Part shown: positions 4,061 to 64,000 of the stretch, piece by piece
How the letters are laid out: each line of letters begins with the position of its first letter
Numbering within the stretch: the stretch's first letter is position 1
NCBI GenBank assembly: GCA_963782465.1
Contig: CAWAJR010000007.1
Location: 347,016-411,015, forward strand
Source of the DNA: an uncultured Actinomycetes bacterium
Lineage (GTDB): Bacteria > Actinomycetota > Acidimicrobiia > IMCC26256 > PALSA-610
DNA length: 64,000 nucleotides
Reading direction: 5' to 3'
The notes under the pieces: generated by a model
Seen by the model: only the letters and a program-made list of their open reading frames with translations
Told to the model about the DNA's origin: nothing
Database searches by the model: none
Translations under genes and position numbers: made by a program

Positions 4061-4177
4061 CCGCCAACCCTACGGGAGCGCCGAGGAAGCGGAGGAGGGC
4101 GGCGCGGACGCCCACGAGGGCCGGAAGTCCCAAGCTGCGCATCGGGCAAGGAACGAGGCGGCAATGGTCGATCAGAG

Positions 4178-7701: not shown

Positions 7702-8106
7702 GTGGTGCTTAACGCGTCCGAGCCGATGATGCACGGGATGCACCCCACCCACCGGCGAGACGCCGGCCTGCACAAAGTCGCCGTGTTCACTCGACGCCTG
7801 AGCGTCGGTGCGCTCGCGCTCACGGGCATGTTCACGGCATTCGTTGCCCGGGCACAACCGGCAAAGAGCTCGAACAAGGCGTCGACGTCGCGTACCGTGC
7901 CGCCCGAAACCGCGGCGACGCCGTCGGTGACGCCGGGCACCCTGCCTCCCGACACCTTCCCGCCGACGACCGCGCCGGCGCAGGACGACTCGCCGGCGAC
8001 GCAGGCCGCGCCGGCGACGAACCCGCCGCAACAGCAGGTCCAGCCGCCGGTGCAGGTTCCCGATCCCACCCCACTTCCCCCCGTCGTCTCCTCGGGGTCT
8101 TCCTGA
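7702..8106 (+). CDS. Membrane-anchored Pro/Thr-rich protein, first gene of the ApbE redox cluster
   Basis: ORF with one N-terminal hydrophobic helix (LSVGALALTGMFTAFVARA) and a Pro/Thr/Gln-rich tail. G/C-ending codons. It ends 4 nt before apbE. The start is uncertain (GTG 7702, ATG 7726 or ATG 7738). Confidence 0.6.
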   Translation: MVLNASEPMMHGMHPTHRRDAGLHKVAVFTRRLSVGALALTGMFTAFVARAQPAKSSNKASTSRTVPPETAATPSVTPGTLPPDTFPPTTAPAQDDSPATQAAPATNPPQQQVQPPVQVPDPTPLPPVVSSGSS

Positions 8107-8110
8107 TCCG

Positions 8111-10170: not shown

Positions 10171-10182
10171 GATGGCAATCAC

Positions 10183-11481: not shown

Positions 11482-11744
11482 AGCAACGCCTTGTCGTGAA
11501 CCCGATCATGTGTGTGGGCCACGGGCTGTGTGCCGAACTGTTCCCCGAGTGGATCCACCTCGACGACTGGGGTTACCCCATCATCGATCCACGTCCTGTC
11601 CCGAAGCACTACGCCGGCCACGCGAAGCGGGCCATCGCGGCGTGCCCGACCCTGGCGCTCATGCTGCGGGAGGAAGCCCCTGCTCCGGCGCCCGCGACAG
11701 CCGCACCGACGCCGCGGCGCTCGCGATCGCGCTCGGGCTCCTAG
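11478..11744 (+). CDS. Small ferredoxin
   Basis: ATG 11478 overlaps the NuoF-like stop (ATGA). NPIMCVGHGLCAELFPE..AIAACPTLAL Cys pattern of single-cluster actinobacterial ferredoxins. Confidence 0.8.
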   Translation: MKQRLVVNPIMCVGHGLCAELFPEWIHLDDWGYPIIDPRPVPKHYAGHAKRAIAACPTLALMLREEAPAPAPATAAPTPRRSRSRSGS

Positions 11745-11754
11745 TCTCTCTCGC

Positions 11755-12420
11755 GTGGCGCGCGTACTGGTCGTCGAGGACGACGACGGGATCGCTGAAC
11801 CGCTCGTGCGCGCGCTCCAGCGCGAGGGCTACGAGACGGCGCGCGCCGCGACCGGAGCCGATGCCACCCGGTTGGTCGACGGCGGGGTCGATCTGGTCGT
11901 TCTCGACCTCGGGCTCCCCGATGCCGACGGTGTCGCGGTGTGCCGCACGATGCGCCGCGCCGACCCGACCCTGCCGATCCTCATGCTCACCGCACGCTCC
12001 GACGAGCTCGACGTCATCGTCGGGCTCGACGCCGGCGCCGACGACTACGTCACCAAGCCGTTCCGGTTGGGTGAGCTCCTCGCCCGGGTGCGGGCGCGCG
12101 TGCGGGGCCGGTCGTCGAGCACGGTGCGGGTGCAAGACCTCGAGATCGACATCGCCGGCCGGCGGGCATGGCTCGCGGGGAAGGAACTGGACCTCACGGT
12201 CAAGGAGTTCGATCTGCTCGCGCTACTGGCGCGTCGGGCCGGCACCGTCGTGACACGCGAGGAGATCATGACCGAGGTGTGGGACGCCCACTGGTTCGGT
12301 TCGACGCGCACCCTCGACGTGCACATCTCGTGGCTGCGCAAGAAGCTCGCGAACGACGCGGCCGCCGGCCGGTACATCTCTACCGTGCGAGGTGTCGGCT
12401 TCCGCCTCGAGACGGCCTGA
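11755..12420 (+). CDS. OmpR/PhoB-family response regulator
   Basis: GTG 11755. Receiver domain VLVVEDDDGIAEPL..DLVVLDLGLPDADG..LMLTAR..KPF. Winged helix LTVKEFDLLALLARRAG..TLDVHISWLRKKL..VRGVGFRL. Confidence 0.92.
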   Translation: MARVLVVEDDDGIAEPLVRALQREGYETARAATGADATRLVDGGVDLVVLDLGLPDADGVAVCRTMRRADPTLPILMLTARSDELDVIVGLDAGADDYVTKPFRLGELLARVRARVRGRSSSTVRVQDLEIDIAGRRAWLAGKELDLTVKEFDLLALLARRAGTVVTREEIMTEVWDAHWFGSTRTLDVHISWLRKKLANDAAAGRYISTVRGVGFRLETA

Positions 12421-12423
12421 CCC

Positions 12424-13698
12424 GTGCGCCGCCGCATCGCCTGGGCAACCGTCACCGTTGCCATTACCGGCATCCTTGTGCTCGGTGTGCCACTCGCCTT
12501 CGTCGGTCGCCAGGTCGTCCGTAACGACGAACTGCGGCGACTCGATCGGGAGGCGTCGTCGATCGCCTTCGCGATCGACGACGACTTCGAGCATGCGAGA
12601 CCGATCGACAGCACGCTCCTCACCGCGCTGGCCGGTACGGACCGTTTCGTGATCGTGCGCGAAGCGAGCGGTCACATCGCATCGGGTGGCGCGCACCTCA
12701 CCGGCCAGACGATCTCGGCGACGGTCCCCGTCGAGCAACACGGCACGATCACGGTGTTCACGAGCGCGAGCGACACGAACCGACGGGTTGCGACCGCGGT
12801 GCTCGTAATCGCAGGCTTGAGCGTCCTCGGCGTGATCGCGGCGATCGGTCTCGCCATGTTCGTCGCGCGGCGGCTCGGTCGGCCGGTCGCCGATCTCGCC
12901 CGCGTCTCGGAGCGCCTCGGGTCGGGCGACTTCTCGGTGCGCGCACCTCGCAGCGGCGTGCCGGAACTCGACGCGGTGGCCGACGCGCTCGACCACTCCG
13001 CCGAACGCATCGACGAACTCGTCCGCAACGAGCGTGAGTTCGCGACGAACGCGTCTCACCAGTTGCGCACGCCGCTCACCGCGTTGCGCCTCCGCCTCGA
13101 GGAACTCGGTCTTTCGCGCGACGATGACGTGCGTCAGGAAGCCGAGGCCGCGCTCGCGCAAACCGATCGACTGGCTTCGACGATCGAAGAACTGCTCGCC
13201 CTGGCGCGTGATCACGCGGGTTCGGTTCGGCACCCCGTCGACGTCGCCGCACTCGTGAAGGAACGCACCGCGTCGTGGCAGGGTACGGCGCGCCGCTCGC
13301 GCCGCGTCGTCGAAGTGCACGCCGACGGCCCGCTCGTCGTGCAGTCGTCGGCGAGCGCGCTGGCGCAAGCGATCGACGCCCTGATCGAGAACTCACTCCG
13401 TCACGGCAAGGGGACCGTGCGGGTGGAGGCGCGCTCCCACTCGCACCACGTCGAGATCACCGTCGAGGACGAAGGTGCAGGGATCCCGCCCAGTTCCGTC
13501 GGCTCGATCTTCGACCGTCACGTCTCGTTGCGCGGCGGCAGCGGTGTGGGCCTCGCTCTCGCGCGTGCACTCGTCGAAGCATCGGGGGGTCGGCTCGATC
13601 TCGTACGACCGCAACCACCGCGCTTCCGGGTCTTGCTGCCTCTGCAAGCCGACGACGAGATCGTCGAGGGCGCGATGCCCACACGCGAAATCTTCTGA
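12424..13698 (+). CDS. Sensor histidine kinase (TM-HAMP-HisKA-HATPase)
   Basis: Two TM helices; H-box EFATNASHQLRTPLTAL; N box LIENSLRHG; G boxes DEGAGIP and GGSGVGLALARAL. Starts 3 nt after the response regulator. Confidence 0.92.
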   Translation: MRRRIAWATVTVAITGILVLGVPLAFVGRQVVRNDELRRLDREASSIAFAIDDDFEHARPIDSTLLTALAGTDRFVIVREASGHIASGGAHLTGQTISATVPVEQHGTITVFTSASDTNRRVATAVLVIAGLSVLGVIAAIGLAMFVARRLGRPVADLARVSERLGSGDFSVRAPRSGVPELDAVADALDHSAERIDELVRNEREFATNASHQLRTPLTALRLRLEELGLSRDDDVRQEAEAALAQTDRLASTIEELLALARDHAGSVRHPVDVAALVKERTASWQGTARRSRRVVEVHADGPLVVQSSASALAQAIDALIENSLRHGKGTVRVEARSHSHHVEITVEDEGAGIPPSSVGSIFDRHVSLRGGSGVGLALARALVEASGGRLDLVRPQPPRFRVLLPLQADDEIVEGAMPTREIF

Positions 13699-32397: not shown

Positions 32398-32505
32398 GGC
32401 GTCGCCGAACCGGCGTGAGCGGGCGGGCTCGCGCCGGTTCGGCCGCGGCCCGGAAACGGGCCGCGAACGGGTCGTCGACGGTGGGTATGCCATCCTGGGC
32501 ACGCC

Positions 32506-34664
32506 TTGAAGACCGCTCGGTTCTTGTTCCGGTTCACCGCAATCGTGGTGATTGGCGCGCTCGCGCTCGGTGGTTGCTTCGCGCTCATCGCCCCCGCCGC
32601 GCGCCAGGTGATCTTCGGTACGACGGCGTACGGATCGATCCTGCCCAAGCTCAGCCGCCCGGCCGAGCGCTCGATCGTCTACGACACGTACGGCAACCCG
32701 ATCGACACGCTCTACGACCAGGACCGCGAGTCGATCGCGTTCAAGGACATACCGAAAACGCTGATCGACGCGGTGCTCTCCATCGAGGACCACGGCTTCT
32801 ACCAGCACGGCGGTGTCGACGCGAAGGCGACGATGCGCGCCCTCATCGAGAACGTCGGCTCCGGTCACGTGCAGCAGGGTGGCTCGACCATCACCCAGCA
32901 GCTGGTGAAGAACACCCTCATCAAGCACCCCAAGCGCGACCTGCAGCGCAAGATCCAGGAAGCGTTCCTCGCGACGCGGCTCGAGAAGGAGCTGACGAAG
33001 AACCAGATCCTCGGGCGCTACCTCAACGTGATCTACCTGGGTGACGGTGCCTACGGGGTGCGTTCCGCGGCGGAGCGCTACTTCGGCGTCGAGCCGAAGA
33101 AGCTCACGCTGGCCGACTGCGCCATGATCGCCGGGCTGATCCAGTCGCCGGAAGAACTCAACCCGATCACCCACCCGCGCGCGGCCCGGATCCGGCGCGC
33201 GACCGTCCTCGACGAGATGGTGAAGTACGGGAAGATCACGGAAGGTGCGGCGGCGTTCGCGAAGCGGCAACCGTTGCCGACCAAGACGCACAACAACAAC
33301 CCGACCGGCAACCCCGACAACGGTTACTACCTGTCGTGGGTGATCAACCATGTGCTCCTGCAGGACGACCCGACGGTGAAAGGCGACGTCGGTGAAGTGC
33401 TGAAGGACGCCTACGACTCGCCGTACAACGCGGTCTTCCAGGGTGGGCTGAAGATCTACACGACCTTCGACCCGTTCATGCAGAACCGCGCCCTCCAGGC
33501 GGTGCGAAGCAATCTGCCGGAGTCCGACTTCGCCGCCGCCATGATCGCGATGGACAACTCGAACGGCGCCGTCGTCGCAATGGTCGGCGGCCCGAACTTC
33601 GACACCGCGAAGTTCAACCTTGCGACGCAAGGGCTGCGCCAGACCGGTTCGACTTTCAAGGCGATCACGCTGGCGACGGCGCTCGAAGCCGGGTACTCGC
33701 CGAACGACATCGTCAACGGCACCCCGCCGTTCGTCTACCCGATCCCCGGCAGTGCGCCCCTCGACATGCGTAGCGACTGCGGCGGCCCCGAGACGCTCAC
33801 CGCCGCCATCGCCCGGTCCGACAACTGCGCGTTCACCCGAACGCTCGTCTCGCTCGGCGCGGCAACGGTGGCTCCGACGGCGCGAAGCGAGTGATCGCGA
33901 TGGCCGGTCGCTTGGGGATCAGCACGAGCACCCTCTACCCGTCGCCGACGTTGACGCTCGGTACGGGAGCGACGTCGGTGTTGCAGATGGTCGGCGCGTA
34001 CTCCGTGTTCCCGAACAACGGCATCCGCCGCCCGCCGATGTTCGTGACCAAGGTCGTCGCGCCCGACGGCAAGGTGCTGTTCCAAGACCCGGGTTCCGGC
34101 ACACCGGTGCTGAGCCCGCAGGTCGCCGAAACGGAAACCCAGATGCTGCGAGGCGTCATCACCGGCGGTACGGGTACGCGGGCGAACATCGGTCGCCCGG
34201 CGGCCGGCAAGACCGGCACCACGACCAACAGCACCGACGCATGGTTCATCGGGTTCACCCCCCAGTACACCGCCGGTTTCTGGATGGGCAACCCGCTGAA
34301 GGAAGCGGCTTCACCGGTACTCGGCGGCATTTTCGGCGGGCAATATCCCGCCGAGATGTGGCACGACTTCATGTCGTCGGCGGTCAGCAACCTGCCCGCG
34401 CTCGACTTCACGCACCCCAACGCGAGCCAGTTCCCGTCCGTGCAGTACATCGACGAGCACGGCCGGAGCCTGCACTTCGTGCTCCCGACAACGACGACGA
34501 CGGCACCGCCGGTCACCACGCCGACGACCGCACCCGCGAAGAAGAAGCCGAACCAGTCGCCGGGCACCACGACGCCGACGACCAAGCCGCCGGCCACGAC
34601 GCCGACCACGAAGAAGCCGCCGAGCACCACCGCTCCCGGCGGCGGCACAGGTGGAGGGCCGTGA
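32506..34664 (+). pseudogene. Class A penicillin-binding protein (PBP1A-type transglycosylase/transpeptidase); frame broken near 33852-33866
   Basis: ORF 32506..33894 has the TM anchor, GT51 motifs EDHGFYQHGGVD and GGSTITQQLVKN, SxxK (GSTFK) and SxN (SDNCAF). ORF 33891..34664 continues with GNGGSDGAKRVIAMAGRLGI (read upstream of its annotated start), KTG (AGKTGTT) and a Pro/Thr-rich tail. Confidence 0.9.
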
Positions 34665-42444: not shown

Positions 42445-44079
<1,635 letters not shown>

Positions 44080-44100
44080 CTGCTCCGCACGATTACGGCG

Positions 44101-45836: not shown

Positions 45837-46450
45837 CCGGTTCGAACTTCACCAAGGTGTCGGGAACGTTCCAGGTGCCGAAGGCGACCGGAGCGAAGCG
45901 CTCCAAGCCCGCCTATTCGTCGGCCTGGATCGGTATCGACGGGTTCGACAACGGGAACCTCATCCAGGCCGGTACGGCATCCGACTGGTCGGGCGGCACG
46001 GCGAGCTACTACGCGTGGTGGGAGATCCTGCCCGCCTCCGAGACGCGGATCCCCGCGAGTGTGATCACGGTGCATGCCGGCGACCTGATGACCGTGAAGA
46101 TCACCAAGGGCTCACCGAAGTGGACGATCCGCATCACCGACAAGACGACCGGCAAGTCGTTCACGACGAAGCAGGTGTACGGCGGCGCGGGTACGTCGGC
46201 CGAGTGGATCGTCGAAGCACCGTTGATCGGGAACAAGCTCGCGAAGCTCGCGCACTACGGACCGATGTTCTTCGACAACGGACGGGTCAACGGCGCCAGC
46301 CCCAACCTGCAGCCGAGCGATTCCGGCGTGATGACGAAGGGCGCGAAGATGAAGGTCATCTCGTCGCCGTCGGTACCCGACGACGACGCGAAGCCCGACG
46401 GGTTCGCGATGCGTTACGGGCCCGTCGCGCCGCCACCACCGAGCTCGTAG
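45611..46450 (+). CDS. Secreted peptidase G1 (eqolisin / scytalidoglutamic peptidase, Peptidase_A4) family protein
   Basis: Signal-like N-terminus. [26 protein letters not shown] (catalytic Gln context) and [10 protein letters not shown] (catalytic Glu context). Confidence 0.8.
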
Positions 46451-46466
46451 CGGCTGGAGTGACTGC

Positions 46467-46964
46467 GTGACGGCACCCGAAGTCCATCCCGAGATCGCCC
46501 CGCTGGCCTTTCTGCTCGGGACGTGGTCGGGGCGGGGCCACGGCGAGTACCCGACGATCGAATCGTTCGACTACGACGAGACCGTGACCTTCACCCACGT
46601 CGGCAAACCGTTCATCGCCTACGCGCAGCGCAGCCGCCACGCGATCGACGGGCGGCCGCTCCACGGGGAGAACGGGTTCTGGCGGCTCGCGCCCGCGTCG
46701 GCAAGGGTCGAGTTCGTGGTCGCGCACCCTTCGGGCATCGTCGAAGTCTCGGAGGGTGGGTTCGACGGCCCGATGCTGCGCATGCGGTCGACCGCGGTCG
46801 TCGGTACCGCGACGGCGAAGTCGGTGACGGCGATCGAGCGCGACCTCGTCGTGGGCGACGACGTGCTGCAGTACGTGCTGCGCATGGCCGCAGTGGGCCA
46901 ACCGCTCACACTCCATCTCTCCGCGGAACTGCACCGCCGCCCGGACGCGGCTCAGCCGACGTAA
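46467..46964 (+). CDS. Nitrobindin / THAP4-like heme-binding beta-barrel (DUF1794) protein
   Basis: [53 protein letters not shown]. Confidence 0.8.
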
Positions 46965-52293: not shown

Positions 52294-54950
52294 TCACCCG
52301 CCGTCGTGAGCGCTCCGGCGGAACTTGTCGAACGTGTCGGCGCCGAGCACGACGATCGGTGCGCAGAGGGCCACCGCGAACCCGGCCAGGGTCGGGCACG
52401 CGTGGTGGAGCAAGGAGGCGAGGGGTGCCACGCCGAGGAACGCGGCGACCAGCACGACCTCGGTCAGCACCGCAACGAGCAGGAACCGGTTCGTCGATTT
52501 CACGAGGTGCCGCGCCGGGATCGTATTGCTGCGGCAGGCGAACGCATTCGCCATCTGCCCCAGGACCACCGCCGCGAACGCCGCTCCCGAAGCTGTCAGC
52601 AGCGTGTGCCCGTGCACGAACGCGTCGCCGGGCCGCCATCCCGCGACGAGATAGGTCGTGAGGAAGGCCGCCATCTCGACGACCGCTTCGGCCGGCCCGA
52701 GGACACCGAACGCGCGGCGGGCGACGATCCGATCGAGAAGATGCCCGCTCGCCGGCGGCTGGCGGAGCGCCCGCTCGTCGGGTGGTTCGGCGCCGAGCGC
52801 AACCGCGGGCAGCGTGTCGGTCCCGATGTCGAGCGCCAGCACCTGGAGCACACCGAGCGCGAGCGGGAAGCGACCGCCCGACAGTGCCCACACGACGAAC
52901 GGGGTGAGCTCCGCGACGTTGTCGGTCAGGTGGTAGGTGAGGAAGCGGCGCACGTTGGCGAAGACGGCCCGCCCCTGTTCGATGGCGGCGACGATCGTTG
53001 CGAAGTCGTCGTCGAGCAGGACGACGTCGGCGGCTTCCACCGCGACATCGGTACCCGAACGGCCCATCGCGATGCCGATGTCGGCTTCCTGGAGCGCGGG
53101 CCCGTCGTTGACGCCGTCGCCGGTCATCGCGACGACGTGGCCCCGGGCACGCAGCGCGCGTGCGATACGCAGTTTCTCCTCCGGCGAGACGCGGCTGACG
53201 ACGACACCGTCACGATCGATGAGCGCGCCGAGCACGGCATCGTCGCGGGGCAGCGTGTCGCCGTCGAGCACGAGGCCGTCGTCGGGTGCGAGACCAACCT
53301 CGCGTGCGATCGCGGTCGCGGTGATCGGGTGGTCGCCGGTGATCATCGCGATCTTCATCCCCGCCCGCCGGCACGCGTCGATCGCGGCCTTGGCGTGAGC
53401 GCGGGGCGGGTCTTCGAGCCCGACGATCCCGAACAGGACGAGGTCGCGTTCGGCGTCGGCGGCCGTGGCCGGCACCGCGCCGCCGGCGTCGCGGCCCGCG
53501 ATGGCAAGGAGCCGCAACCCGCGCCGCGCCATGCGTTCGATCGCCGCGGAGGCGTCGTCATGGTTCCCCGCCGTGCAGCGCGGCAGGACCGCGTCGGGCG
53601 CGCCCTTCACCAGAATGCCGTCGCCGGTGACCACCGACATGCGGCGGCGCCGCGCATCGAAGGGGAACCGGCCCGTTCCGGCGCATCGCGCGCGCGCCGT
53701 TCGACATCGATGTTCGCACGGCGGGCGAGCACGTCGAGTGCCGCCTCCATCGGGTCGCCCTGCGCGCGCCATTCGCCGTCGACAAACGCAACGCGACCAG
53801 TCGAGCAGCGCACCGCCGCGGCCGCGAGTTCCTCGAGCGTGGCGCGCGCCGCGTCGTTCTCGTAGGTCACCTCACCGGTCGGTACGTAACCCTCGCCCGA
53901 CACCTCGACGAGCCCGGCCGGCGTCCACACCTCGACGACCGCCATGCGGTTCTCGGTCAGGGTGCCGGTCTTGTCGGTGCAGATGAACGTGGTGGAACCG
54001 AGCGTCTCGACCGCCTCGAGGCGGCGGACGAGTGCGTGCTTGCGCGCCATTCGCTGCGCGCCGATCGCGAGCGACAACGTCACGGTCGGTAACAAGCCCT
54101 CCGGGACGAGCGCGACGGTGACCCCGATCGCGAACAGCAAGCCGTCGGACGCGGGAGTCCCGGCGAGCAGGGCGACGACGAGGAACGCGGCACCGACCGA
54201 GACCGCCACGATCGCGATGATCGAGACGACCCGGCGAAGTTCCTGCGCGAGCGGCCCGCACGGGCGCGGCGTCGCGCGAGTCATTGCCGCGATGCTCGCC
54301 AGGCGCGTGCGGGGCCCGGTCGCCTCGACCACCGCGCGGCCCTGGCCCTCGACCACGAAGGTCCCGGCGTGAAGGGTCGTGCCTTCGGCCGCGACGACCG
54401 GGACGGTCTCACCGGTGAGCGTCGACGTGTCGATCGACAATGCATGCGTCGTGACCGCCCGCAGGTCGGCACTGATCCGGTCGCCGGCGTTGAGCAGTAC
54501 CATGTCGCCGCGCACGAGGTCGTCGGCGTCGAGTTCGTACGGCTGACCGTCGCGCACGACCCGCACCCGGCGGGGGAGGAGCTCGCGCAGTGCCTGCGCG
54601 GCTCGTTCGGCCCGGTATTCCTGCGCGAACGCGAAGACGCCGTTCAGCACGACGACGATCGCGATCGCGGCACCGAGTTCGGGCATCCCGGCCAGGACGG
54701 CCAGCGCGGCCGCGACCCACAGCATCATGGCGAAGAAATGCACGAACTGCGCGGCCAGCTGCCGCCACGCGGGGACGCCCGGCGCGGCGGGCAGCCGGTT
54801 CGGGCCGTCGGACGCGAGGCGTGCGGCGGCTTCGTGCGCGGTCAGGCCCTTGGCGAACGCCCCCGGTCCCGCTCGTTGCGGTGCGCCGTCGTCGTCTCCT
54901 TCTTCGACGACGGCGCGCAGTGCAGTCGGGCTATCGGGCGACGAAACCAC
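52294..54950 (-). pseudogene. P-type cation-transporting ATPase (P2-like, PEGL motif); frame broken near 53668-53684
   Basis: ORF 53607..54950 has [20 protein letters not shown] and the phosphorylation site [13 protein letters not shown] 52294..53772 continues with TGRFPFDARRRRMSVV..KGAPDAVL, MITGDHPITA, TGDGVNDGPAL and the C-terminal TM helices. The junction reads gcgccggaacgggccgg. Confidence 0.88.
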
Positions 54951-55689
54951 CGTCGACCGCGATCGCCTGGCCGGTGACGTAGCTCGCGTGGTCCGAGCAC
55001 AGCCACACGATGGTGTCCGCGATTTCCTCCGGGCGGCCCAGACGGCCGATCGGCTCGATCTGCACGAGCTGCCGGGTCGCTTCAGGGTCGCGGTGGGTGA
55101 AGCGGGTGATCATCTCGGTGTCGATCACCCCGGGGCACACCGCGTTCACCCGGATCCCTTGCGTCGCGTACTCGAGGGCCGCGTTCTTCGTGAGCCCGAT
55201 GATGCCGTGCTTCGACGCAACGTACGCGGGGCTTCCCTCGAACCCGACGAGGCCGGCAACCGACGACGTGTTGACGATCGCACCGCCACCCGTCGCGAGC
55301 ATCACGGGGATCTCCTCGTGCATGCAGAGAAAGACGCTCGTGAGGTTCACGTCGATGACCCGGCGCCAGTTCGCGAGTGTGCAGTCGGCGGTGGGCGCGG
55401 TGACACCCTCGATGCCGGCATTGTTCGCGGCGTAGTCGAGCCGACCGAAACGTCGCACCGCTTCCTCGACGAGATGGTGCACGTCGTCCGGGACGGTGAC
55501 GTCGGTCCGTACGAAGAAGGCGTCGACGCCTTCGTTGGCGACCTCGGCGGCGGTCTTTTCGCCTCGCTCGACGTCGACGTCGGCGACGACGACCCGGCAT
55601 CCGGCCCGGGCGAACGCGAAGGCCGTCGCGCGGCCGATACCCGCGCTCGCGCCGGTGACGATGGCAACGTGCGGTTCGGTGGTGTTCAT
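54931..55689 (-). CDS. SDR family oxidoreductase
   Basis: TGASAGIGRA, NNAGI, YVASKHG. SD aaggag upstream of ATG 55689. Confidence 0.9.
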   Translation of the reverse strand: MNTTEPHVAIVTGASAGIGRATAFAFARAGCRVVVADVDVERGEKTAAEVANEGVDAFFVRTDVTVPDDVHHLVEEAVRRFGRLDYAANNAGIEGVTAPTADCTLANWRRVIDVNLTSVFLCMHEEIPVMLATGGGAIVNTSSVAGLVGFEGSPAYVASKHGIIGLTKNAALEYATQGIRVNAVCPGVIDTEMITRFTHRDPEATRQLVQIEPIGRLGRPEEIADTIVWLCSDHASYVTGQAIAVDGGFVAR

Positions 55690-55794
55690 GTCGATCTCCT
55701 TGCTTTCGTCCTCGATCCTGCGCCGCCCGGCGCCGCCGCACGATGCGCAAAGTGCCGATGTTGGGTGCCGAAGGTCCCGATGCGGATCGCCGGT

Positions 55795-56475
55795 TCACGA
55801 ACCCGGCGGGGCGGGCGAGACCGGCGGGATGTCGTGCAACACGCTCGGCCGGCGGAAGTGCGACGTGCGGTAGGTGTCGACGAGGCGCCGGACGAGCCGG
55901 GCCGGGTCGTCGTCGTAGAGCACGCAGGCACCCGTGTGCTTCGCGATCCGCTCGACGAGCTCGCCCACCATGTCGGCGATGCCGCCCGTGCCGGTCAGCA
56001 CGCCGAGGAGCCGGCCCTCGTCGTACGCGATCGCGAACTCGCCGAGCGTGCCGGAACGCCCGCCGACGATCACGACGATGTCCGACGAGCGGATGGTGAC
56101 GACCTCGCGGCCCATGAGGCCGGAGCCCGTGTACACGAGGACGTCGAAACCGGCGACCGGTGCACCGAAGCGCGTGAGGTGCTCCGGTTCCGAGAGCGCG
56201 GGGGAGATCCCGACGACGAGCCCGCCCGCCGCCTTGGCGCCTTCGACCGCGGCGTAGGGCAGCCCGGCGCAGGCACCCGTCGTGAGCGTGCACCCCGCCG
56301 ATGCGATCGCGCCGCCGAGACGGCGTACGACCTCGACGACCGCCGGGTCGAGTTCGCCGCCGGCCGAGCCCATCACCCCGATGGCGAGCGGCGGGTGTTG
56401 GAGTTCAGGTCCCTTCACGACCACGAGGATCGGCCCGCCGCCCGCGGGCCGACCAGGGCCCAAGGTCCGTCGCAA
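55795..56475 (-). CDS. TIGR00725 / LOG-like Rossmann-fold protein
   Basis: IGVMGSAGG..TGACAGLPYAA..VIVGGRSGTLGEFAIAY (the GGxGTxxE-like block of the LOG/DprA-like fold). The start is uncertain. Confidence 0.7.
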   Translation of the reverse strand: MRRTLGPGRPAGGGPILVVVKGPELQHPPLAIGVMGSAGGELDPAVVEVVRRLGGAIASAGCTLTTGACAGLPYAAVEGAKAAGGLVVGISPALSEPEHLTRFGAPVAGFDVLVYTGSGLMGREVVTIRSSDIVVIVGGRSGTLGEFAIAYDEGRLLGVLTGTGGIADMVGELVERIAKHTGACVLYDDDPARLVRRLVDTYRTSHFRRPSVLHDIPPVSPAPPGS

Positions 56476-56552: not shown

Positions 56553-58334
56553 GTGAAGGTTCCCCCGATTCGCAAGCGCGACGAGGATGCTCGCCGGGCC
56601 GTCCTCGCCGACTACGAACAAGCTCGGGCGACGTTCAGTTGGGAGGAGGCCCGCGCCCGCCTCGACGGACTTCCCGGCGGCCGCGGGCTGAACATCGCCC
56701 ACGAAGCCGTCGACCGGCACGCCGCCTCCGCGCACGCGGACCACGTCGCGATTCGCTGGCGCGGCAAGCGTGGGGAGCGGCGCGACATCACCTACACCGG
56801 GCTCCGCGACGAGACGAGCCGTTTCGCGAATGCGCTCGACGCGCTGGGGGTCGGCGCCGGGGAACGGGTGTTCACGTTGCTCGGCCGCGTTCCCGAACTC
56901 CATGTCTCGGTGCTCGGGGCCCTCAAGCGCGGCGCCGTCGCGTCGCCGCTCTTCTCGGCGTTCGGTCCGGAGCCGGTGCGGCAACGGCTCGCGATCGGCG
57001 ACGGTCGTGTCCTCGTGACGACGCGCGCCCTCTACGATCGGAAGGTCGCACCAGTGCGCGACGAGGTTCCCGGCCTCGAGCACGTACTGCTCGTAGGCGC
57101 CGGCGCCGACCCCGCGGGCATACCCGGCGGTCAGCGGCTCGACGATCTGCTCGCGGCGGCGTCGCCGAGCTTCACGATTCCCCGAACGCGGCCCGACGAC
57201 CTCGCGCTGTTGCACTTCACGAGCGGGACGACGGGGACGCCCAAGGCCGCGATGCACGTGCACGAGGCGGTCGTCGCCCATCACGTCACCGGCGCGTACG
57301 CGCTCGACCTGCACCCCGACGACGTCTTCTGGTGCACGGCCGACCCGGGGTGGGTGACCGGCACGTCGTACGGGATCATCTCGCCGCTGACTCACGGCGC
57401 GACGGTTGTCCTCGTCGAGGCGGAATTCGATGCGCAACGTTGGTACGAGACGCTCGAACGCGAACAGGTCAACGTGTGGTACACCGCGCCGACGGCGATC
57501 CGCATGATGATGCGAGCCGGGCCACTTACCGGTGAGGGCCGCGACCTCTCCGCGTTGCGGTTCATCGCGAGTGTCGGTGAACCGCTCAATCCGGAAGCCG
57601 TACGGTGGGGTGTCGACGCGTTCGGGCTGCCGATCCACGACAACTGGTGGCAGACGGAAACCGGCGGGATCATGATCGCCAACTTCGCGGCGACCGACAT
57701 CAAACCGGGATCGATGGGACGCCCGCTGCCCGGGATCGACGCGGCCGTGCTCCTGCGCGACGAGCGCGGACATGTGGTCGTCGAAGACGGCGTCGCCGCG
57801 CTCGCTCCGACCGGCGTCGAAGGGGAACTGGCGTTGCGCGCGGGATGGCCGTCGATGTTCCGCGGCTACCTGGGAGAAGCGGAGCGTTACGCGAAGTGCT
57901 TCGCGGGCGGGTGGTACCTGAGCGGCGACCTCGCGACGGTCGACGAAGACGGGTACTTCTGGTTCGTCGGGCGAGGCGACGACGTCATCAAGTCGGCCGG
58001 GCACCTGATCGGCCCGTTCGAGGTCGAGAGCGCGCTGATGGAGCACCCGGCGGTTGCCGAAGTCGGCGTCATCGGCAAGCCGGACGCGCTCGTCGGCGCG
58101 ATCGTGAAGGCGTTCGTCGTCCTGCACGCCGGTTACGAACCGAACGAACAACTGAAGTTGGAGTTGATCGGCTTCGGCCGGAAGCACATGGGCGCCGCGG
58201 TGGCGCCGAAGGAGATCGCGTTCGTCGCGGAGCTCCCGAAGACGCGCAGCGGCAAGATCATGAGGCGGCTGTTGCGGGCACGCGAGCTGGGGCTGCCGGA
58301 GGGCGACCTCTCGACGCTGGAAGGGGAAGCGTGA
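56553..58334 (+). CDS. AMP-forming acyl/acetyl-CoA synthetase (AcsA-like short form)
   Basis: 593 aa. [51 protein letters not shown]. Confidence 0.88.
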
Positions 58335-59347
58335 GTACCTCTGCCCCGGTGCGGCTTTCGGCCGATCAGGCCAAGAAGCTCGTCTTCGAGATGACGCGCG
58401 TCCGCCGGTTCGAAGAACGCTGCGTCCAGCTGTACAGCGCGGCCAAGATCCGCGGGTTCCTGCACCTCTACATCGGGGAGGAAGCGGTCGCGGTCGGCGT
58501 GATGGAAAACCTCGCGCCCGAAGATGCGGTGGTCGCGACCTACCGCGAGCACGGGCACGCGCTCGCGCGAGGGGTGCCCACCCGGGAGCTCATGGCCGAG
58601 ATGTTCGGCAAGGTCGAAGGTTGCAGCCGCGGTCGTGGGGGCTCGATGCACATCTTCGACGCGGAACGCCGCTTCTACGGCGGGAACGCGATCGTCGCCG
58701 GTGGCCTGCCCGTCGCGGTCGGTCTCGCGCTCGCGGACCGGATGCAGGGGCGCGACCGGGTGACCGCGTGCTTCTTCGGTGAAGGTGCCGTCGCGGAAGG
58801 CGAGTTCCACGAGTCGATGAACCTGGCGGCCCTCTGGGGTCTGCCGGTCCTGTTCTGCTGCGAGAACAACCTCTACGCGATGGGTACGGCGTTGGCCCGT
58901 TCGGAGTCGGAGACCGACCTCACGCTGAAGGCGTCGGCCTACGAGATGCCGGCCTGGCCGGTCGACGGGATGGACGTCATCGCGGTGCGCGACGCGGCGA
59001 AGCGCGCCTGCGAGTCGATCCGCGCGGGCGGCGGACCGCATTTCCTCGAGTTGCGGACCTACCGGTTCCGGGCCCACTCGATGTACGACCCCGAGCGCTA
59101 CCGCGAGAAGACCGAAGTCGAACAATGGAAGGAGCGTGACCCGGTGGCGAGCATCGTCGTGGCCGTGCAAGCGGCCGGGCTCGTGACCGAAGACGAGGTC
59201 GCGGCGATCGAACGGGCCGTCGAGGAAGAGATCGACGAGGCCGTCGCGTTCGCCGAAGCGGGCACGATCGAACCGGTCGAGGACCTGACCCGTTTCGTGC
59301 TGAGCGAGCGGCCGGCGGTGCCGGGCGGCGGGAGCAGCGGGCGATGA
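58331..59347 (+). CDS. 2-oxoacid (pyruvate/acetoin-type) dehydrogenase E1 component alpha subunit
   Basis: GTG 58331 overlaps the upstream stop (GTGA). [16 protein letters not shown], the TPP-binding block [33 protein letters not shown], and YRFRAHSM. Confidence 0.9.
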
Positions 59348-60342
59348 GCAGCGACGGGGCGGTGAAGACGACCTACCGCGACGCGATCCGCGCCGCCATA
59401 CGCGACGCGCTGCTTCGCGACGAGCGCGTGTTCCTGATGGGCGAAGACGTCGGGAAGTACGGCGGTTGCTTCGCGGTGAGCCTCGGTCTCTTCGAGGAGT
59501 TCGGACCGGAACGCATTCGCGACACGCCGCTTTCCGAGTCGGCCTTTGTCGGTGCGGGCATCGGCGCGGCGCTCGGAGGCATGCGACCGATCGTCGAGAT
59601 CATGACGGTGAACTTCAGCCTGCTCGCCCTCGACCAGATCATGAACAACGCCGCGACCCTGCTGCACATGTCGGGCGGCCAGTGCAACGTCCCGCTCGTG
59701 ATCCGTATGACGACGGGAGCGGGGCGGCAGGTTGCCGCGCAGCACTCCCACAGTTTGGAGGGTTGGTACGCGCACATCCCGGGCCTGCGCATCGTCGCAC
59801 CGGCGACGCTCGAAGACGCACGGGGGATGTTGTGGACGGCGCTGGACGATCCCGACCCGGTGCTCTTCTTCGAGCATGGCGGCCTCTACAACATGGCGGG
59901 CGAGCTGGCCGCCGATGCCGGCCCCGTCGACATCGACCGTGCCGCGGTGCGCCGGCCGGGCGACGACGTGAGCGTGATCACCTACGGCGGCACGCTCCCG
60001 GCGGCCCTCGAAGCCGCAGAACTGCTCGCCGCCGAACAGGTGTCGGTCGAGGTTGTCGACCTGCGCACGTTGCGCCCGCTCGACGACGCGACCGTGATGG
60101 GCTCGGTGACGCGTACCCACCGCGCGGTCGTCGTCGACGAAGGCTGGCGTTCGGGCAGCCTCTCGGCCGAGGTCAGCGCTCGTATCCAGGAACAGGCGTT
60201 CTACGATCTCGACGCGCCCGTCGCGCGAGTCTGCAGCGCGGAAGTGCCGATGCCGTACGCAAGACATCTCGAGGAAGCCGCGCTGCCGCATGCCGCCGGT
60301 GTCGTCGACGCGGTTCGTTCGACCCTCCGGGGCGGGTCGTAG
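59344..60342 (+). CDS. 2-oxoacid dehydrogenase E1 component beta subunit
   Basis: ATGA overlap with the alpha subunit. [42 protein letters not shown]. Confidence 0.9.
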
Positions 60343-60344
60343 CG

Positions 60345-61544
60345 ATGGGTGAATTCTGCATGCCCTCCCTCGGTGCCGACATGGACGAGGGCACCGTGGT
60401 CGAGTGGCTCGTCGGCCCGGGCGACACCGTCGCCAAGGGCGACATCGTCGCCGTCGTGAAGACCGACAAGGCCGACATCGAGGTCGAGATCTTCGAGTCG
60501 GGCACGGTGGGGGAGATCCTGGTCCCGGTCGGGACGACCGTCGAGGTCGGTGTCCCGCTCGCGACGATCGTGGGGGACGGGGCGCCCGCACCCGCGGTGC
60601 CTGCCGCGCCCGCGCCGGCGGAGCCTGCCGCGCCTGTCGTGCCGCCGGTCGTGGTGCGTGAAGCGCCGGCACCACCGCCACGCCCGGCCGCGGCGACCGG
60701 CCGCCCGCGCATCTCGCCGTACGCGCGGCGCCTCGCGTCGGAACTCGGTGTCGACGTTTCGGCCGCGGAGACATCCGGCGGCCTTCCGATCATGGCCGCC
60801 GACATCCGCCGGCTCGAAGCACAACCGCCGCCGGCGACGTCGAACGCGCCGACGGAGGCGGCCGCCGAGCCGGCCGACCAGGCAACGGCGATGCGACGCG
60901 CGATCGCGAACCTCATGGCGCGCTCCAAGCGGGAGATCCCGCACTACTACCTGCGCCAGCAGATCGACATGTCGCGAGCGCTCGCTCGGCTGGCCGAGTG
61001 CAACGCGAGCGAACCGGTCGAGCGGAGGGTGTTGCCCGGAGTGGTGTTGTGCAAAGCGACCGCGCTCGCGGTCCGCTCCTATCCGGAACTGAACGGCTTC
61101 TGGGTCGACGGTGGGTTCCAGCCCGCGACCGGCGTCCACCTGGGTGTTGCCATCGCGCTGCGCGGCGGTGGGCTCATCGCTCCCGCGGTGCACGACGCCG
61201 ACCAGCTCCCGCTCGTCGACCTCATGGCGACGTTGCGCGACCTGAGCATGCGCGCCCGCACCGGGCGGTTGCGCTCGTCGGAGATGAGCGACCCGACGAT
61301 CACCGTCACCAATCTGGGCGACCAGGGCGTCGACGCAGTCTTCGGTGTCATCTACCCGCCGCAGGTCGCGCTGGTCGGGTTCGGCAAGGTGGCCGAGCGG
61401 CCGTGGGTCGAAGGTGACGCGGTCGTGGTTCGCCCGGTCGTCGAAGCGTCGCTGGCCGCCGATCACCGCGCCACCGACGGGCATGTCGGCGCGCGCTTCC
61501 TCGCCGCGATCGAGCGGCTGCTGCAACATCCGGAGGAGCTGTGA
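60345..61544 (+). CDS. Dihydrolipoamide acyltransferase (E2) component
   Basis: Lipoyl domain with VVKTDKADIEVE, Ala/Pro-rich linkers, a subunit-binding domain (ISPYARRLASELGVD) and a catalytic domain with LAADHRATDG. Confidence 0.9.
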   Translation: MGEFCMPSLGADMDEGTVVEWLVGPGDTVAKGDIVAVVKTDKADIEVEIFESGTVGEILVPVGTTVEVGVPLATIVGDGAPAPAVPAAPAPAEPAAPVVPPVVVREAPAPPPRPAAATGRPRISPYARRLASELGVDVSAAETSGGLPIMAADIRRLEAQPPPATSNAPTEAAAEPADQATAMRRAIANLMARSKREIPHYYLRQQIDMSRALARLAECNASEPVERRVLPGVVLCKATALAVRSYPELNGFWVDGGFQPATGVHLGVAIALRGGGLIAPAVHDADQLPLVDLMATLRDLSMRARTGRLRSSEMSDPTITVTNLGDQGVDAVFGVIYPPQVALVGFGKVAERPWVEGDAVVVRPVVEASLAADHRATDGHVGARFLAAIERLLQHPEEL

Positions 61545-61786
61545 ACACGACCGACCCGGCCGAGACGATCCGCGCGACGCTCGCGCGTATCGCACCCGAA
61601 GCCGACTTCGACGCGCTGTCCCCCGATGCCGATCTCCAGGAGGCCCTCGATCTCGACTCGATGGACTTCCTCAACTTCGTCATCGGGTTGAAGGAGGCAA
61701 CCGGCGTGGAGATCCCCGAGCACGACTATGCCCAGGTCGCGACGCTCAGAGGCTGCATCGAGTACCTCGCTGCTCGCGCCCGCTGA
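61541..61786 (+). CDS. Acyl/peptidyl carrier protein (phosphopantetheine attachment site)
   Basis: GTG 61541 overlaps the E2 stop (GTGA), with SD ggaggag 3 nt upstream. 81 aa with LDLDSMDFLNFVIGL (a DSx Ser motif). Confidence 0.8.
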   Translation: MNTTDPAETIRATLARIAPEADFDALSPDADLQEALDLDSMDFLNFVIGLKEATGVEIPEHDYAQVATLRGCIEYLAARAR

Positions 61787-61875
61787 GGCGTCACGGCCCC
61801 CCAGGGACCATCGCCTCTGTTCCCTCCGGGCATCGCGCACGACGCTGGTCACATCGCCCGAGAGCGAGGTGTGAG

Positions 61876-64000
61876 CGTGCGCAGTGTCACATGGTTCCAG
61901 GAGTTGTCGTCGGCGGACGTTGCCGTGGTCGGTGGGAAGGGTGCGAACCTCGGCGAGCTGACGAGAGCCGGCTTCCCGGTACCTCGCGGTTTCGTGATCA
62001 CTGCGGATGCGTACCTCGACGCCATGGACCACGGCGGTGTGCGCGCCGAATTGGTCGAGGTGGCCCACGCGATCGATGTGGATACCGCGGATTCGCTCGC
62101 GACCGGAGCCCACCGGTTGCAGGACCTCGTCGGGAAAGCCGGCATGCCCGACCGGTTGCGGGCCGAGATCGCGACCGCGTACGCCGCGCTCGGCGACGGC
62201 CGCGTGGCCGTCAGGTCGTCGGCGACGAGCGAAGACACCGCCGACGCGTCGTTCGCGGGCATGAACCGCACCTTCACGAACGTCGAAGGCGCCGACGACG
62301 TCGTGGCCCACGTCGTCGAATGCTGGGCGTCGCTCTACGCCGAACGGGTCGTCGCCTACCGGCGGGCACGCGGGTTCGACGACGAACCGGCGATCGCGGT
62401 CGTCGTCCAGGAGATGGTCGACTCGGAACGCAGCGGCGTGATGTTCACGGTCGACCCGGCAACCGGGCAACGCACGCAGCTGGTGATCGAGGCGGCGTTC
62501 GGGCTCGGCGAAGTCGTCGTGGGCGGCCAGGTCGAACCCGACACCTACCGCGTCGAGAAGGACGATTTCCACCTCGTCGACGTTCGGGTCGGCCGCCAGA
62601 CATTCGCGATCGTCGCCGACCCCGCACACGGGGACCGTCGCGTCGAGCTGCCGGCCACCGAAGGGGCGCGGCGCGTGTTGAGCGACGACGAGGTGGCCGC
62701 GCTCGCGCGCATCGGGGTCGCGATTGAACAGCATTACGGCGCGCCGCAAGATGTCGAATGGGCCCTGGCGAAGGGCTCGCTGTTCATCGTGCAGTCGAGG
62801 CCGATCACGACACTGGGCGGCGACACCAACGACGCCGAACCCGAGGGTCAGGTTCTCGTGCGGGGCCTGGGTGCGTCCCCGGGGACGGCGACCGGTGCCG
62901 TACGCGTGTTGCACAACCCGGAGGAGGGCGCCGCGCTCGTGCAGGGTGAGATCCTCGTTGCGCCGATGACGAACCCAGATTGGGTACCGGTGCTCCGGCG
63001 CGCCGGTGCCCTGGTGACCGATGGTGGCGGGATGACGTGCCACGCCGCGATCGTCACCCGCGAACTGGGTGTGCCGTGCATCGTCGGGGCACGGCGCGCG
63101 ACGGAGGTGTTGCGCGACGGCGAACTGGTCACCGTCGACGGTACGAAGGGTGTGGTCGTGGCGGGCGGCGCGGCGACCGTCGTGCCGGTTCGCGAGCGCC
63201 CCCCGACGGTCGTCTCGGCCATCGAGCCGCTCGCGACGCGGCTGTACGTCAACCTCGCGATGGCCGACCAGGCCGAACGGGTGGCGGCGCTGCCCGTCGA
63301 CGGCGTCGGTCTGCTGCGGGCTGAGTTCATGATCACCGACGCGTTGCACGGCATGCACCCGAGGGCGCTCATCGCGAAGGGCGGGCGCGAGCAGTTCATC
63401 GAGCAGATGAGCCAAGCGCTGCTACGGATCACGTCGGCGTTCGCGCCCCGGCCGGTCGTCTACCGCACGATCGACTTCCGCACGAACGAGTTCCGCAAGC
63501 TCGAGGGCGGCAGTGCATTCGAGCCGGTCGAGGGGAACCCGATGATCGGCTACCGCGGCTGCTACCGCTACGTGCGAGAGCCCGACCTCTTCGCACTCGA
63601 ATGTGAGCTGCTCGCGCGAGTGCGCGAGCAGACACCGAACCTGCACGTCATGATCCCGTTCGTTCGTACCCGCTGGGAACTCGAGGCGTGCCTCGAGATG
63701 ATCGACGCGAGCCCGCTCGGGCGCCAGCGCGGCCTGCACCGCTGGGTGATGGCCGAAGTGCCGTCGGTCGTGTACCGCGTGCCGGAGTACGCGGCCCTCG
63801 GCGTCGACGGTGTGTCGATCGGGTCGAACGACCTGACGCAGCTGATGCTCGGCGTCGATCGCGACTCCGAGATCTGCTCGGAGCTGTTCGACGAATCCGA
63901 CGCGGCCGTGCTCGACGCGATCGGCCGGATCATCACCGCCGCGAACGATGCGGGGATCACGTCGTCGCTGTGTGGGCAGGCGCCGTCGAACCGGCCCGAG
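61876..64000 (+). CDS. ppsA: Phosphoenolpyruvate synthase (pyruvate, water dikinase); 3' end runs off the window
   Basis: Absent from the ORF track because no stop falls inside the window. Frame 1 reads VRSVTWFQELSSADVAVVGGKGANLGELTRAGFPVPRGFVITADAY. It continues with SSATSEDTADASFAGM, QDVEWA..FIVQSRPITT, the phospho-His GGMTCHAAIVTRELGVPC, and the PEP-binding GSNDLTQL. GTG 61876 (GAGG 7 nt upstream) or GTG 61870 is the start. Confidence 0.9.

Follow-up and report, generated by a model that had tools for sequence, protein, structure and literature searches.

Pyruvate dehydrogenase (PDH) complexes with a heterotetrameric E1 are encoded by pdhA-pdhB-pdhC-lpd, and lpd, the gene of dihydrolipoamide dehydrogenase (E3), is commonly shared in trans. 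A second familiar enzyme of acetate metabolism is AcsA of Bacillus subtilis (PRK04319/NF003313), an AMP-forming ligase and a genuine coenzyme A (CoA) ligase. In the glycolicacyl-ACP systems QncN/QncL/QncM and SclQ1-4, a thiamine pyrophosphate-dependent E1, a lipoyl-bearing E2-type acyltransferase and a stand-alone acyl carrier protein (ACP) form a jointly encoded set, and the C2 unit finally resides on the ACP; these systems work on ketose phosphates in a transketolase-like manner, lie in non-ribosomal peptide synthetase (NRPS) clusters and lack a ligase (PMC6335953). Acs1 of Syntrophus aciditrophicus, an AMP-forming Acs that works physiologically in the ATP-forming direction (PMC4992975, PMC13404658), and Pta-AckA, whose genes are carried by the lxa low-oxygen island of B. 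cenocepacia (PMC3721108), convert an acetyl thioester to acetate and ATP. Here we describe a five-gene cassette, consisting of the genes for an AcsA-type ligase, E1α, E1β, E2 and a dedicated ACP, in a 64,000-nt stretch of DNA (hereafter, the window) from an uncultured Actinomycetes bacterium of the class Acidimicrobiia (contig CAWAJR010000007.1, positions 347,016 to 411,015, forward strand).

The cassette resembles PDH operons in the models matched by its E1α and E1β, in its E2 domains and in the DHRxxDG motif. However, lpd is missing in cis from the window and from 167 of the 168 related loci, its E2 falls below the family cut-offs and has a shortened C-terminus, and the operon starts with an AMP-forming ligase and ends with an ACP. 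Similarly, its ligase shares the equivalog score, ~50% identity, the acetate pocket and the A10 Lys with B. subtilis AcsA, whereas it is always encoded with a dedicated carrier and has Leu in the A8 motif where AcsA and Salmonella enterica Acs (Se-Acs) have Arg. Compared with the Qnc and Scl systems, the cassette has a PDH-type E1, an acetate ligase and a stress-island setting, and no assembly-line genes. The role that we propose for it, conversion of an acetyl thioester to acetate with a gain of ATP under energy limitation, is that of Acs1 and Pta-AckA (PMC4992975, PMC13404658, PMC3721108), but these enzymes use acetyl-CoA, whereas we propose a protein-bound carrier.

A description of the cassette was not found in open-access full text, which is absence of evidence and not proof of novelty; the account of OsdR in Streptomyces coelicolor (PMC5069765) and a preprint on hypoxia in Mycobacterium smegmatis (bioRxiv 10.1101/2023.09.11.557286) do not mention it. 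All of the part families, and E1/E2-to-ACP transfer in secondary metabolism, are known already. What is new is the fixed combination of an acetate ligase, PDH E1/E2 and an ACP, its breadth and its stress-island setting.

Conservation of the five-gene cassette

The gene junctions of the window, read from the table of open reading frames (ORFs) and the sequence, bear out the tight coupling that the initial annotation had reported. The ligase and E1α genes overlap in GTGA at 58331, and the E1α and E1β genes in ATGA at 59344, with the E1α stop ending at 59347. The E1β stop (TAG, 60340-60342) is separated by a 2-nt gap (cg, 60343-60344) from the ATG of E2 at 60345, and the ACP starts with GTG at 61541 within the GTGA in which E2 ends at 61544. 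The gene names that had been assigned agree with the curated models of NCBIfam and Pfam. Exact-sequence look-ups found neither the ACP nor the E2 of the window itself on record.

We scanned one genome per GTDB species with a 28-sequence ACP alignment, which gave at least 568 confirmed relatives, and examined the best 80 loci (these and the further loci below are designated by L numbers), testing their layout by tblastn with the window proteins. The order ligase-E1α-E1β-E2-ACP on one strand was fixed in 50 of the 54 ACP-anchored genome loci with at least 5.6 kb of upstream sequence. The best 80 ACP loci, and also these 50, span at least 12 phyla; the 50 come from Acidimicrobiia, Chloroflexota, Myxococcota, Nitrospirota, Methylomirabilota, Rokubacteria, Acidobacteriota, Gemmatimonadota, Desulfobacterota and Alpha-, Beta- and Gammaproteobacteria. 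Median identities to the window proteins were 66% for the ligase, 65% for E1α, 71% for E1β and 51% for E2; across the genome loci, identity ranged from 59 to 77% for E1α and from 63 to 80% for E1β, the best-conserved member of the cassette.

As a reverse test, metagenome contigs were scanned with E1β alone, and the ACP was not used. We regarded as informative the 46 E1β-anchored loci with a complete 3' end of E2 and at least 260 nt downstream. The ACP directly followed E2 in 45 of them and lay 450 nt downstream in the remaining one, and the ligase was found upstream of E1α wherever the contig extended that far. A 4-nt overlap joins the end of E2 to the beginning of the ACP in 56 of 77 loci, and the cassette arrangement recurs in well over 100 independent loci. 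The carrier gene, whose adjacency would have been fortuitous had orthologous operons lacked it, is therefore part of the operon. At the level of gene linkage, these counts partly support the core of the initial annotation, namely that a carrier inside a 2-oxoacid dehydrogenase operon may receive an acyl group or share a pathway with the ligase and E1/E2.

Some loci deviate from this order. The ligase and ACP occur without E1/E2 in L005 and L065, L054 has ligase-E2-ACP without E1, and L038 has the order E2-ACP-ligase. The fact that the ACP remains with the ligase when E1 or both E1 and E2 are absent supports a pairing of ligase and carrier. The cassette is also found on conjugative plasmids, in Desulfotalea and Burkholderia savannae. 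We conclude that the five genes are a co-inherited, translationally coupled and horizontally mobile unit.

Several ACP loci lack a cassette. L013 and L020 gave no informative context, L014 adjoins genes for a universal stress protein (USP) and a SLOG protein, and in L070 a ketosynthase (KS)-like ORF lies upstream of the ACP, which is probably a different kind of ACP. In L161 (1-5500), E1α-E1β-E2 are followed by their reverse complements, the two halves meeting at ~2750; this mirror-image contig looks like a hairpin assembly artefact.

Features of the encoded proteins

The ligase scored 873 bits against the acetate--CoA ligase model NF003313 (equivalog cut-off, 729), and its nearest solved structure is B. 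subtilis AcsA (9g79; E 4e-166, ~50% identity). Among 88 cassette ligases, the acetate-pocket residues (V-T in GWVTG, V in SVGEP and WW in NWWQTETGG) and the A10 Lys (SGK) are kept at 90% or more. The pocket residues correspond to V310, T311, V386 and W414 of Se-Acs; judged by these residues, the pocket of the cassette ligase is acetate-sized. In the A8 hinge motif (57993-58007 in the window, residues ~481-485), all cassette ligases have a family-specific Leu, which replaces the Arg of Se-Acs (R526) and B. subtilis AcsA. The CoA-loop residues E188, G189, R191 and R194 of Se-Acs, which are important in Se-Acs and SaAcs1 (PMC13404658), are not kept in the cassette ligases. However, the same positions are likewise not conserved in B. 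subtilis AcsA, and therefore this comparison does not discriminate between a CoA ligase and a ligase with another acceptor.

E1α passed the equivalog model TIGR03182 (451 bits; cut-off, 393.85) and E1β passed the subfamily model NF006667 (398 bits; cut-off, 321), by which the cassette E1 is of the PDH type. The E2 contains the Biotin_lipoyl (PF00364), E3_binding (PF02817) and 2-oxoacid_dh (PF00198) domains, and the lipoyl Lys, the peripheral subunit-binding domain (PSBD) and DHRxxDG are kept in 91 cassette E2 sequences. Nevertheless, it fell below every NCBIfam E2 cut-off (best, TIGR01349 with 215 bits versus 445). That E2 lies so far below the cut-offs, while E1α and E1β pass theirs, would fit a changed acyl acceptor. 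Moreover, 104 of 124 cassette E2s (L001-L163; 61530-61544 in the window) end in LLQxPExL followed by the stop, and chain lengths and alignment ends place this C-terminus 2-5 residues short of those of the solved 24- and 60-mer E2 cores. In those cores, the final residues form the inter-trimer 'knob', which packs between trimers; an oligomeric state of the cassette E2 different from the 24- and 60-mers is therefore conceivable.

The ACP scored 34 bits against PF00550 (cut-off, 20.8) and stayed below all NCBIfam ACP cut-offs (best, 36 bits versus 71). By these scores it is not orthologous to AcpP/AcpM of fatty-acid synthesis, and the gene has no fab context. Matches among solved structures were limited to generic ACPs of the fatty-acid synthase type and mitochondrial ACPs. 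The family has the signature IAPEAD...LDLDSMDFLNF...PExDY, with 16 invariant columns in the 28 aligned homologues; LDLDSMDF, which holds the Ser of the D-S-x motif at the start of helix II, is invariant. Homologues of the ACP number 1804, and a separate profile search covering 1.84 billion representatives gave 1174 representative clusters (50% identity, E <= 1e-10), nearly all of them stand-alone proteins of 80-110 aa.

An apparent E2-ACP fusion among the best 120 E2 homologues (P0178, 490 aa; L168 9200-9215) was rejected as a sequencing artefact. Its DNA reads GACCCTATGACC where the relatives have an overlapping stop and start, a CC-to-CCC homopolymer insertion, and it comes from an error-prone long-read metagenome-assembled genome (MAG) in which neighbouring genes are broken; these are also fragmented in the related L002 and L003.

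As had been noted initially, the window contains no E3: a scan for the redox-disulfide motif, Pfam scans of ~55 ORFs and tblastn with E. coli Lpd all gave none. The same Pfam scans found no phosphopantetheinyl-transferase family in the window. We repeated the motif scan on the related loci as a companion to the Lpd search, which gave a single match in the 168 loci and the window (1.88 Mb), 7.5 kb from the cassette of L082. The absence of E3 is not in itself anomalous, because lpd is often supplied from elsewhere in the genome and the E2 keeps its subunit-binding domain. This domain also binds α2β2 E1, however, and its presence is thus not proof of E3 use. The simplest reading is that E3 is supplied in trans.

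The copy on the large conjugative plasmid of Desulfotalea psychrophila LSv54, a strict anaerobe, has a gene for a lipoate-protein ligase (LplA) after the ACP (L166 12315-13325). No E3 lies alongside this cassette, and no homologue of the LplA occurs near the cassette in 163 other loci.

Genomic context

For the flanking genes of the window and 83 loci (84 sequences), we used all-against-all clustering and Pfam naming, because tblastn with individual island genes lacked the sensitivity to detect USPs and comparable proteins. The most frequent families were a phosphoribosyltransferase-hydrolase fusion (14 loci), tandem USPs (9), a ribose-phosphate pyrophosphokinase-like protein (9), an AAA_33 ATPase, Hsp20 and a short-chain dehydrogenase (SDR; 7 each, the SDR within 10 kb), a P-type ATPase and GroEL (6 each) and RtcB (5); no non-cassette family was found in more than 14 of the ~84 loci. 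PncB, nitroreductase, PfkB and a GAF kinase with its regulator are further island neighbours.

The annotated loci have the same character. On pDK1 of Rhodococcus sp. DK17, the cassette is preceded by ppsA, pfkB, an AAA ATPase and a GNAT gene, and followed by a USP, a GAF sensor kinase with a response regulator and otsB. In Streptomyces fungicidicus, it lies amid five USPs, flavodoxin, alcohol dehydrogenase, an AAA ATPase, nicotinate phosphoribosyltransferase, DUF1876, Hsp20, nitroreductase and a P-type ATPase. Hsp20 is near the cassette in B. savannae, and HPF, CBS, WS/DGAT and erythromycin-esterase genes are neighbours in MAG loci. In Rhodococcus sp. DK17, S. fungicidicus and the MAG loci, this set of neighbours matches the gene set of the DevR/DosR regulon of Mycobacterium tuberculosis and the OsdR regulon of Streptomyces. 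The same gene classes appear in the papers on OsdR (PMC5069765) and the lxa locus (PMC3721108), and the lxa island is similarly made up, with USP, Hsp20, a LOG-like gene and an ATPase. The context of the cassette is a stress, low-oxygen and dormancy island; this setting, the strongest contextual clue, had been missed in the initial annotation.

The PEP synthase gene ppsA, which had been counted as the end of the chain, is a lineage-specific neighbour. Its product scored 804 bits against NF005057 (cut-off, 598) and has the PPDK_N, PEP-utilizers and PEP-utilizers_C domains. Only about a dozen loci, most of them in Actinomycetota, have PpsA close to the cassette: it follows the ACP in only four (L001, L003, L004 and L005), precedes the ligase in L012, L040, L065 and L080 (in L040 and L080 with a match of only ~40% identity) and is present as distant copies in three further loci. 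Between the ACP and ppsA of the window, neither a terminator nor an RNA structure was found. In M. smegmatis, the PEP synthase MSMEG_3934 belongs to the DosR regulon and rises 70-fold in hypoxia (bioRxiv 10.1101/2023.09.11.557286), and this regulon membership would account for the position of ppsA beside the window cassette. The gene was also described as full-length, but no stop precedes the window end, and the frame is still open after ~708-710 codons. It starts at 61877, after a 90-nt gap from the ACP, or at 61871; the former is the gene call in L001, a contig 98%-identical to the window that we used to read beyond the window end. The homologue in L001 has 751 aa, so that ~40 C-terminal residues lie outside the window.

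The gene upstream of the cassette, reported as LOG-like TIGR00725, is indeed divergent and matches the Pfam family SLOG cluster4 with 133 bits, but its 73.5 bits against TIGR00725 fall short of the cut-off of 106.9. A SLOG gene is near the ACP only here and in L014, and is not part of the core. The features of the cassette and its surroundings are listed in Table 1.

Table 1. Positions of the cassette genes, neighbouring genes and box-like sequences in the window
Feature	Position	Strand	Remarks
AcsA-type AMP-forming ligase, 593 aa	56553..58334	+	First cassette gene; NF003313, 873 bits
PDH-type E1α, 338 aa	58331..59347	+	TIGR03182 (PDH_E1_alph_y) and Pfam E1_dh
PDH-type E1β, 332 aa	59344..60342	+	NF006667 and Pfam Transket_pyr, Transketolase_C
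Divergent E2 acyltransferase, 399 aa	60345..61544	+	PF00364, PF02817, PF00198
Dedicated carrier protein (ACP), 81 aa	61541..61786	+	PF00550, 34 bits
ppsA, 5' 708 codons	61877..64000	+	NF005057, 804 bits; cut by window end
SLOG cluster4/TIGR00725-like gene	55795..56475	-	Divergent from cassette; PF18306, 133 bits; neighbour, not core
SDR	54931..55689	-	adh_short_C2, 245 bits; recurrent cassette neighbour
Cation-transporting P-type ATPase, two overlapping ORFs	52294..54950	-	Pfam domains; dormancy-island-type neighbour
DevR/OsdR-like box CGGACCTTGGGCCC	56456..56469	-	84-97 nt upstream of ligase start, in divergent promoter region
DevR/OsdR-like box GGGACCTTCGGCAC	55765..55778	-	76-89 nt upstream of SDR gene; 1 mismatch
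Weak, doubtful box-like sequence GGGACCATCGCCTC	61804..61817	+	Upstream of ppsA; 3 mismatches

The box upstream of the window ligase, CGGACCTTGGGCCC, has 2 mismatches to the 14-mer GGGACCTTCGGCCC. This 14-mer is contained in the OsdR site of SCO5979 (CGGGACCTTCGGCCCT), an EMSA (electrophoretic mobility shift assay)-bound probe listed in Table 1 of the OsdR paper, and resembles the OsdR consensus AGGGCCGATCGGCCCT (PMC5069765). With 0-1 mismatch, it is found ~70-150 nt upstream of the ligase in L002, L003, L012, L092 and L149; an exact copy lies upstream of PpsA in L065, and a copy with 1 mismatch ~80 nt upstream of the SDR homologue in L003. The count in the window, three hits compared with 1.4 expected and reached by 13 of 100 shuffles, is not significant alone; the case for the boxes rests on their position and recurrence. 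The DevR/OsdR-like boxes stand in front of the ligase in actinobacterial loci. In other loci, including Hydrogenophaga (L056, L081) and other proteobacterial MAGs, the ligase is preceded by FNR-type boxes (TTGAT-N4-ATCAA, at most 1 mismatch), which were present in 9 of 90 loci, compared with 0.8 expected. From the neighbours and these motifs, we infer low-oxygen control of the cassette.

No regulator gene adjoins the cassette in the window. In L001, the gene after ppsA is of the baeRF (bacterial eRF1-like) family (3452-4534), and ~4.3 kb further on (7751-9677) are a HisKA_3 kinase and a response regulator of the GerE type (NarL/DosR family), which is a candidate for control through the boxes. 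Another AMP-binding gene lies 1.1 kb downstream of ppsA in L001, beyond the window end.

The P-type ATPase is split: Cation_ATPase_N and E1-E2_ATPase fall in 53607-54950, and Hydrolase and Cation_ATPase_C in 52294-53772. The two ORFs overlap by ~165 nt in different frames, which marks a frameshift and either a pseudogene or an indel error of long-read assembly. A class A penicillin-binding protein (32419-34661, +) is split likewise: 32419-33891 holds the transglycosylase and the beginning of the transpeptidase, and 33774-34661 the remainder of the latter. With two frameshifts in 64 kb, the source of the window would seem to be an error-prone long-read MAG.

Elsewhere in the window, a second, unrelated AMP-binding ligase of 551 aa (42448-44100, -) adjoins a histidine phosphatase and a methyltransferase. 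About 10 kb before the cassette, 46353-46961 (+) encodes a THAP4-like (nitrobindin-type) haem-binding β-barrel protein, which may have a bearing on the physiology of NO or low oxygen. At 8695-13695 (+), genes for a ferric-reductase-like membrane protein and a Nuo51-like FMN/4Fe-4S protein precede those for an OmpR-type response regulator and a DraK-type histidine kinase, which is an unusual pairing.

A possible route from pyruvate to acetate

We propose that acetyl-S-ACP is an intermediate shared by E1/E2 and the acetate ligase, and that the cassette encodes a CoA-independent route from pyruvate to acetate that yields ATP. This proposal, read from sequence and gene order, is the one that we tentatively favour, at somewhat less than an even chance. 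In this scheme, E1αβ would decarboxylate pyruvate and reductively acetylate the lipoyl arm of the dedicated E2, which would hand the acetyl group to the phosphopantetheine thiol of the ACP rather than (or besides) to CoA. The AcsA-type ligase would interconvert the acetyl-S-carrier and acetate plus ATP, and the housekeeping lipoamide dehydrogenase of the host would re-oxidise the lipoyl arm in trans. The net reaction, which we put forward with less confidence, would be pyruvate + NAD+ + AMP + PPi -> acetate + CO2 + NADH + ATP. The private carrier could be kept almost fully acetylated while the cellular CoA pool stays undisturbed, and by our own reasoning such near-full acetylation would drive a near-equilibrium AMP-forming ligase backwards. 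The cassette would then be a CoA-independent counterpart of Pta-AckA, providing substrate-level phosphorylation when respiration fails. The complete claim, that is, a carrier-protein-based, CoA-independent and energy-conserving pathway that runs through a reversed AcsA-type ligase and serves many phyla under oxygen or energy limitation, is doubtful as it stands, and we advance it as a speculation.

Several observations lead in this direction. That no flank family exceeds 14 loci suggests a pathway with small-molecule substrates and products, and, given the absence of a conserved consumer gene and the mobility of the cassette on plasmids between phyla, a pyruvate-to-acetate conversion with an ATP-forming ligase would be the most economical solution. 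AckA and Pta are almost absent from the cassette flanks, whereas the lxa island carries both genes; this would fit functional replacement. For the transfer from E1/E2 to an ACP, QncN/QncL/QncM provide a precedent (as cited in PMC6335953), and Syntrophus Acs1 is one for the physiological use of an AMP-forming ligase to make ATP (PMC4992975, PMC13404658).

Other observations weigh against the proposal. The sequence features do not decide whether ACP or CoA is the acceptor. By its score, the ligase is an equivalog of a genuine acetate--CoA ligase, and it retains a basic residue where Se-Acs has R584, the contact of the 3'-phosphate of CoA, and the E2 retains every canonical feature, including the subunit-binding domain. 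No robust fusion of the ACP to E2 or to the ligase was found, either among the 120 E2 homologues or in the profile search of 1.84 billion representatives. The usual direction of ANL ligases is forward, and ATP formation would consume PPi, the source of which in non-growing cells is a weak point. Finally, the window's own box has 2 mismatches, the motif count in the window is not significant by itself, and induction by low oxygen is suggested by neighbours and motifs.

Much of this counter-evidence would suit a more conventional arrangement, in which a stress-induced second copy of PDH E1/E2, served by the host E3, and AcsA both make acetyl-CoA for storage lipid, poly-hydroxybutyrate or gluconeogenic metabolism under oxygen limitation, the ACP being an accessory, regulatory or structural subunit. 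The ligase and both E1 subunits pass the cut-offs of the acetate--CoA ligase and PDH models, PGAP annotation of cultured strains uses the names acsA and pdhA, the E2 has lost neither its lipoyl Lys nor its PSBD nor its catalytic motif, the basic residue at the R584 position agrees with the use of CoA, and hypoxic M. smegmatis couples fermentation to carbon storage with a 70-fold induction of PEP synthase (bioRxiv 10.1101/2023.09.11.557286). We nevertheless consider this arrangement, although a serious candidate, on balance unlikely, as it leaves an invariably present and translationally coupled ACP without a reason and accounts neither for its staying with the ligase when E1/E2 are absent nor for the strong constraint on it, with 16 invariant columns across phyla. 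Furthermore, bacterial PDH complexes are not known to employ an ACP as an accessory subunit. If the carrier is instead the acceptor, the ligase might load it from acetate while E1/E2 load it from pyruvate, which was the second option of the initial annotation, and an enzyme whose gene lies elsewhere would consume acetyl-S-ACP, perhaps as a primer of lipid or polyketide-like synthesis or as an acetyl donor. Such convergent loading is backed by the same linkage evidence as our proposal and keeps the ligase in its normal forward direction, and GNAT acetyltransferases (L165, L168) and an acyltransferase and WS/DGAT (L168, L003) do occur near the cassette. However, no KS, acyltransferase, condensation or GNAT gene is conserved beside it, the largest flank families (at most 14 of ~84 loci) being stress proteins, and a mobile plasmid cassette that needs a host enzyme to recognise a foreign ACP is less parsimonious. 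We therefore regard convergent loading as rather improbable.

The remaining alternatives seem far less probable than any of these. The E1-E2-ACP trio resembles the glycolicacyl-ACP system (PMC6335953), and the cassette could be a Qnc-type building-block system of secondary metabolism. It could also be an acetoin dehydrogenase (AcoABC) operon, as acetoin E1 has its closest relatives in E1α/β of the 'y' PDH type. Either reading is very unlikely, in view of the fact that no NRPS or polyketide synthase family recurs in the flanks of the 84 sequences or in the annotated loci, where the neighbourhoods are stress islands and plasmid backbone and acoR, acoX and acoL are not annotated. The sole KS-like ORF is that of L070, whose ACP stands without a cassette, E1α passes the PDH-specific model, and the only acetoin-E2 model matched, NF011457, covers the lipoyl domain alone. 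A helper function in lipoylation, with the ligase and ACP making octanoyl- or lipoyl-ACP for the lipoyl domain of E2, is suggested by the lipoate-protein ligase gene after the ACP in Desulfotalea and by the fact that octanoyl-ACP is the donor for LipB. We consider it the least credible of the explanations, because the Trp-Trp, Val-Thr and Val residues that restrict the pocket to acetate are invariant in the 88 ligases and the LplA gene has no counterpart in 163 other loci.

Implications

The cassette is present in at least 568 species-level genomes and many metagenome contigs, and its carriers include the cultured Rhodococcus sp. DK17, Streptomyces fungicidicus, Burkholderia savannae, Cupriavidus, Hydrogenophaga and Desulfotalea psychrophila. 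Annotation splits its genes among separate names (acsA, pdhA, a generic E2 and a 'fatty-acid biosynthesis' ACP), and metabolic reconstructions consequently take the cassette for ordinary acetyl-CoA metabolism. If the carrier is the acceptor, a 2-oxoacid dehydrogenase of the central-metabolism type would work on a protein-bound thiol outside natural-product pathways, and an Acs-type ligase would have a protein substrate. If, in addition, the ligase runs in reverse, the cassette would represent a previously unrecognised form of substrate-level phosphorylation, in which the private carrier would make the reversal of the ligase thermodynamically feasible. The DosR/OsdR- and FNR-like islands would tie the cassette to the balance of ATP and redox without respiration in obligate aerobes and dormant actinobacteria.

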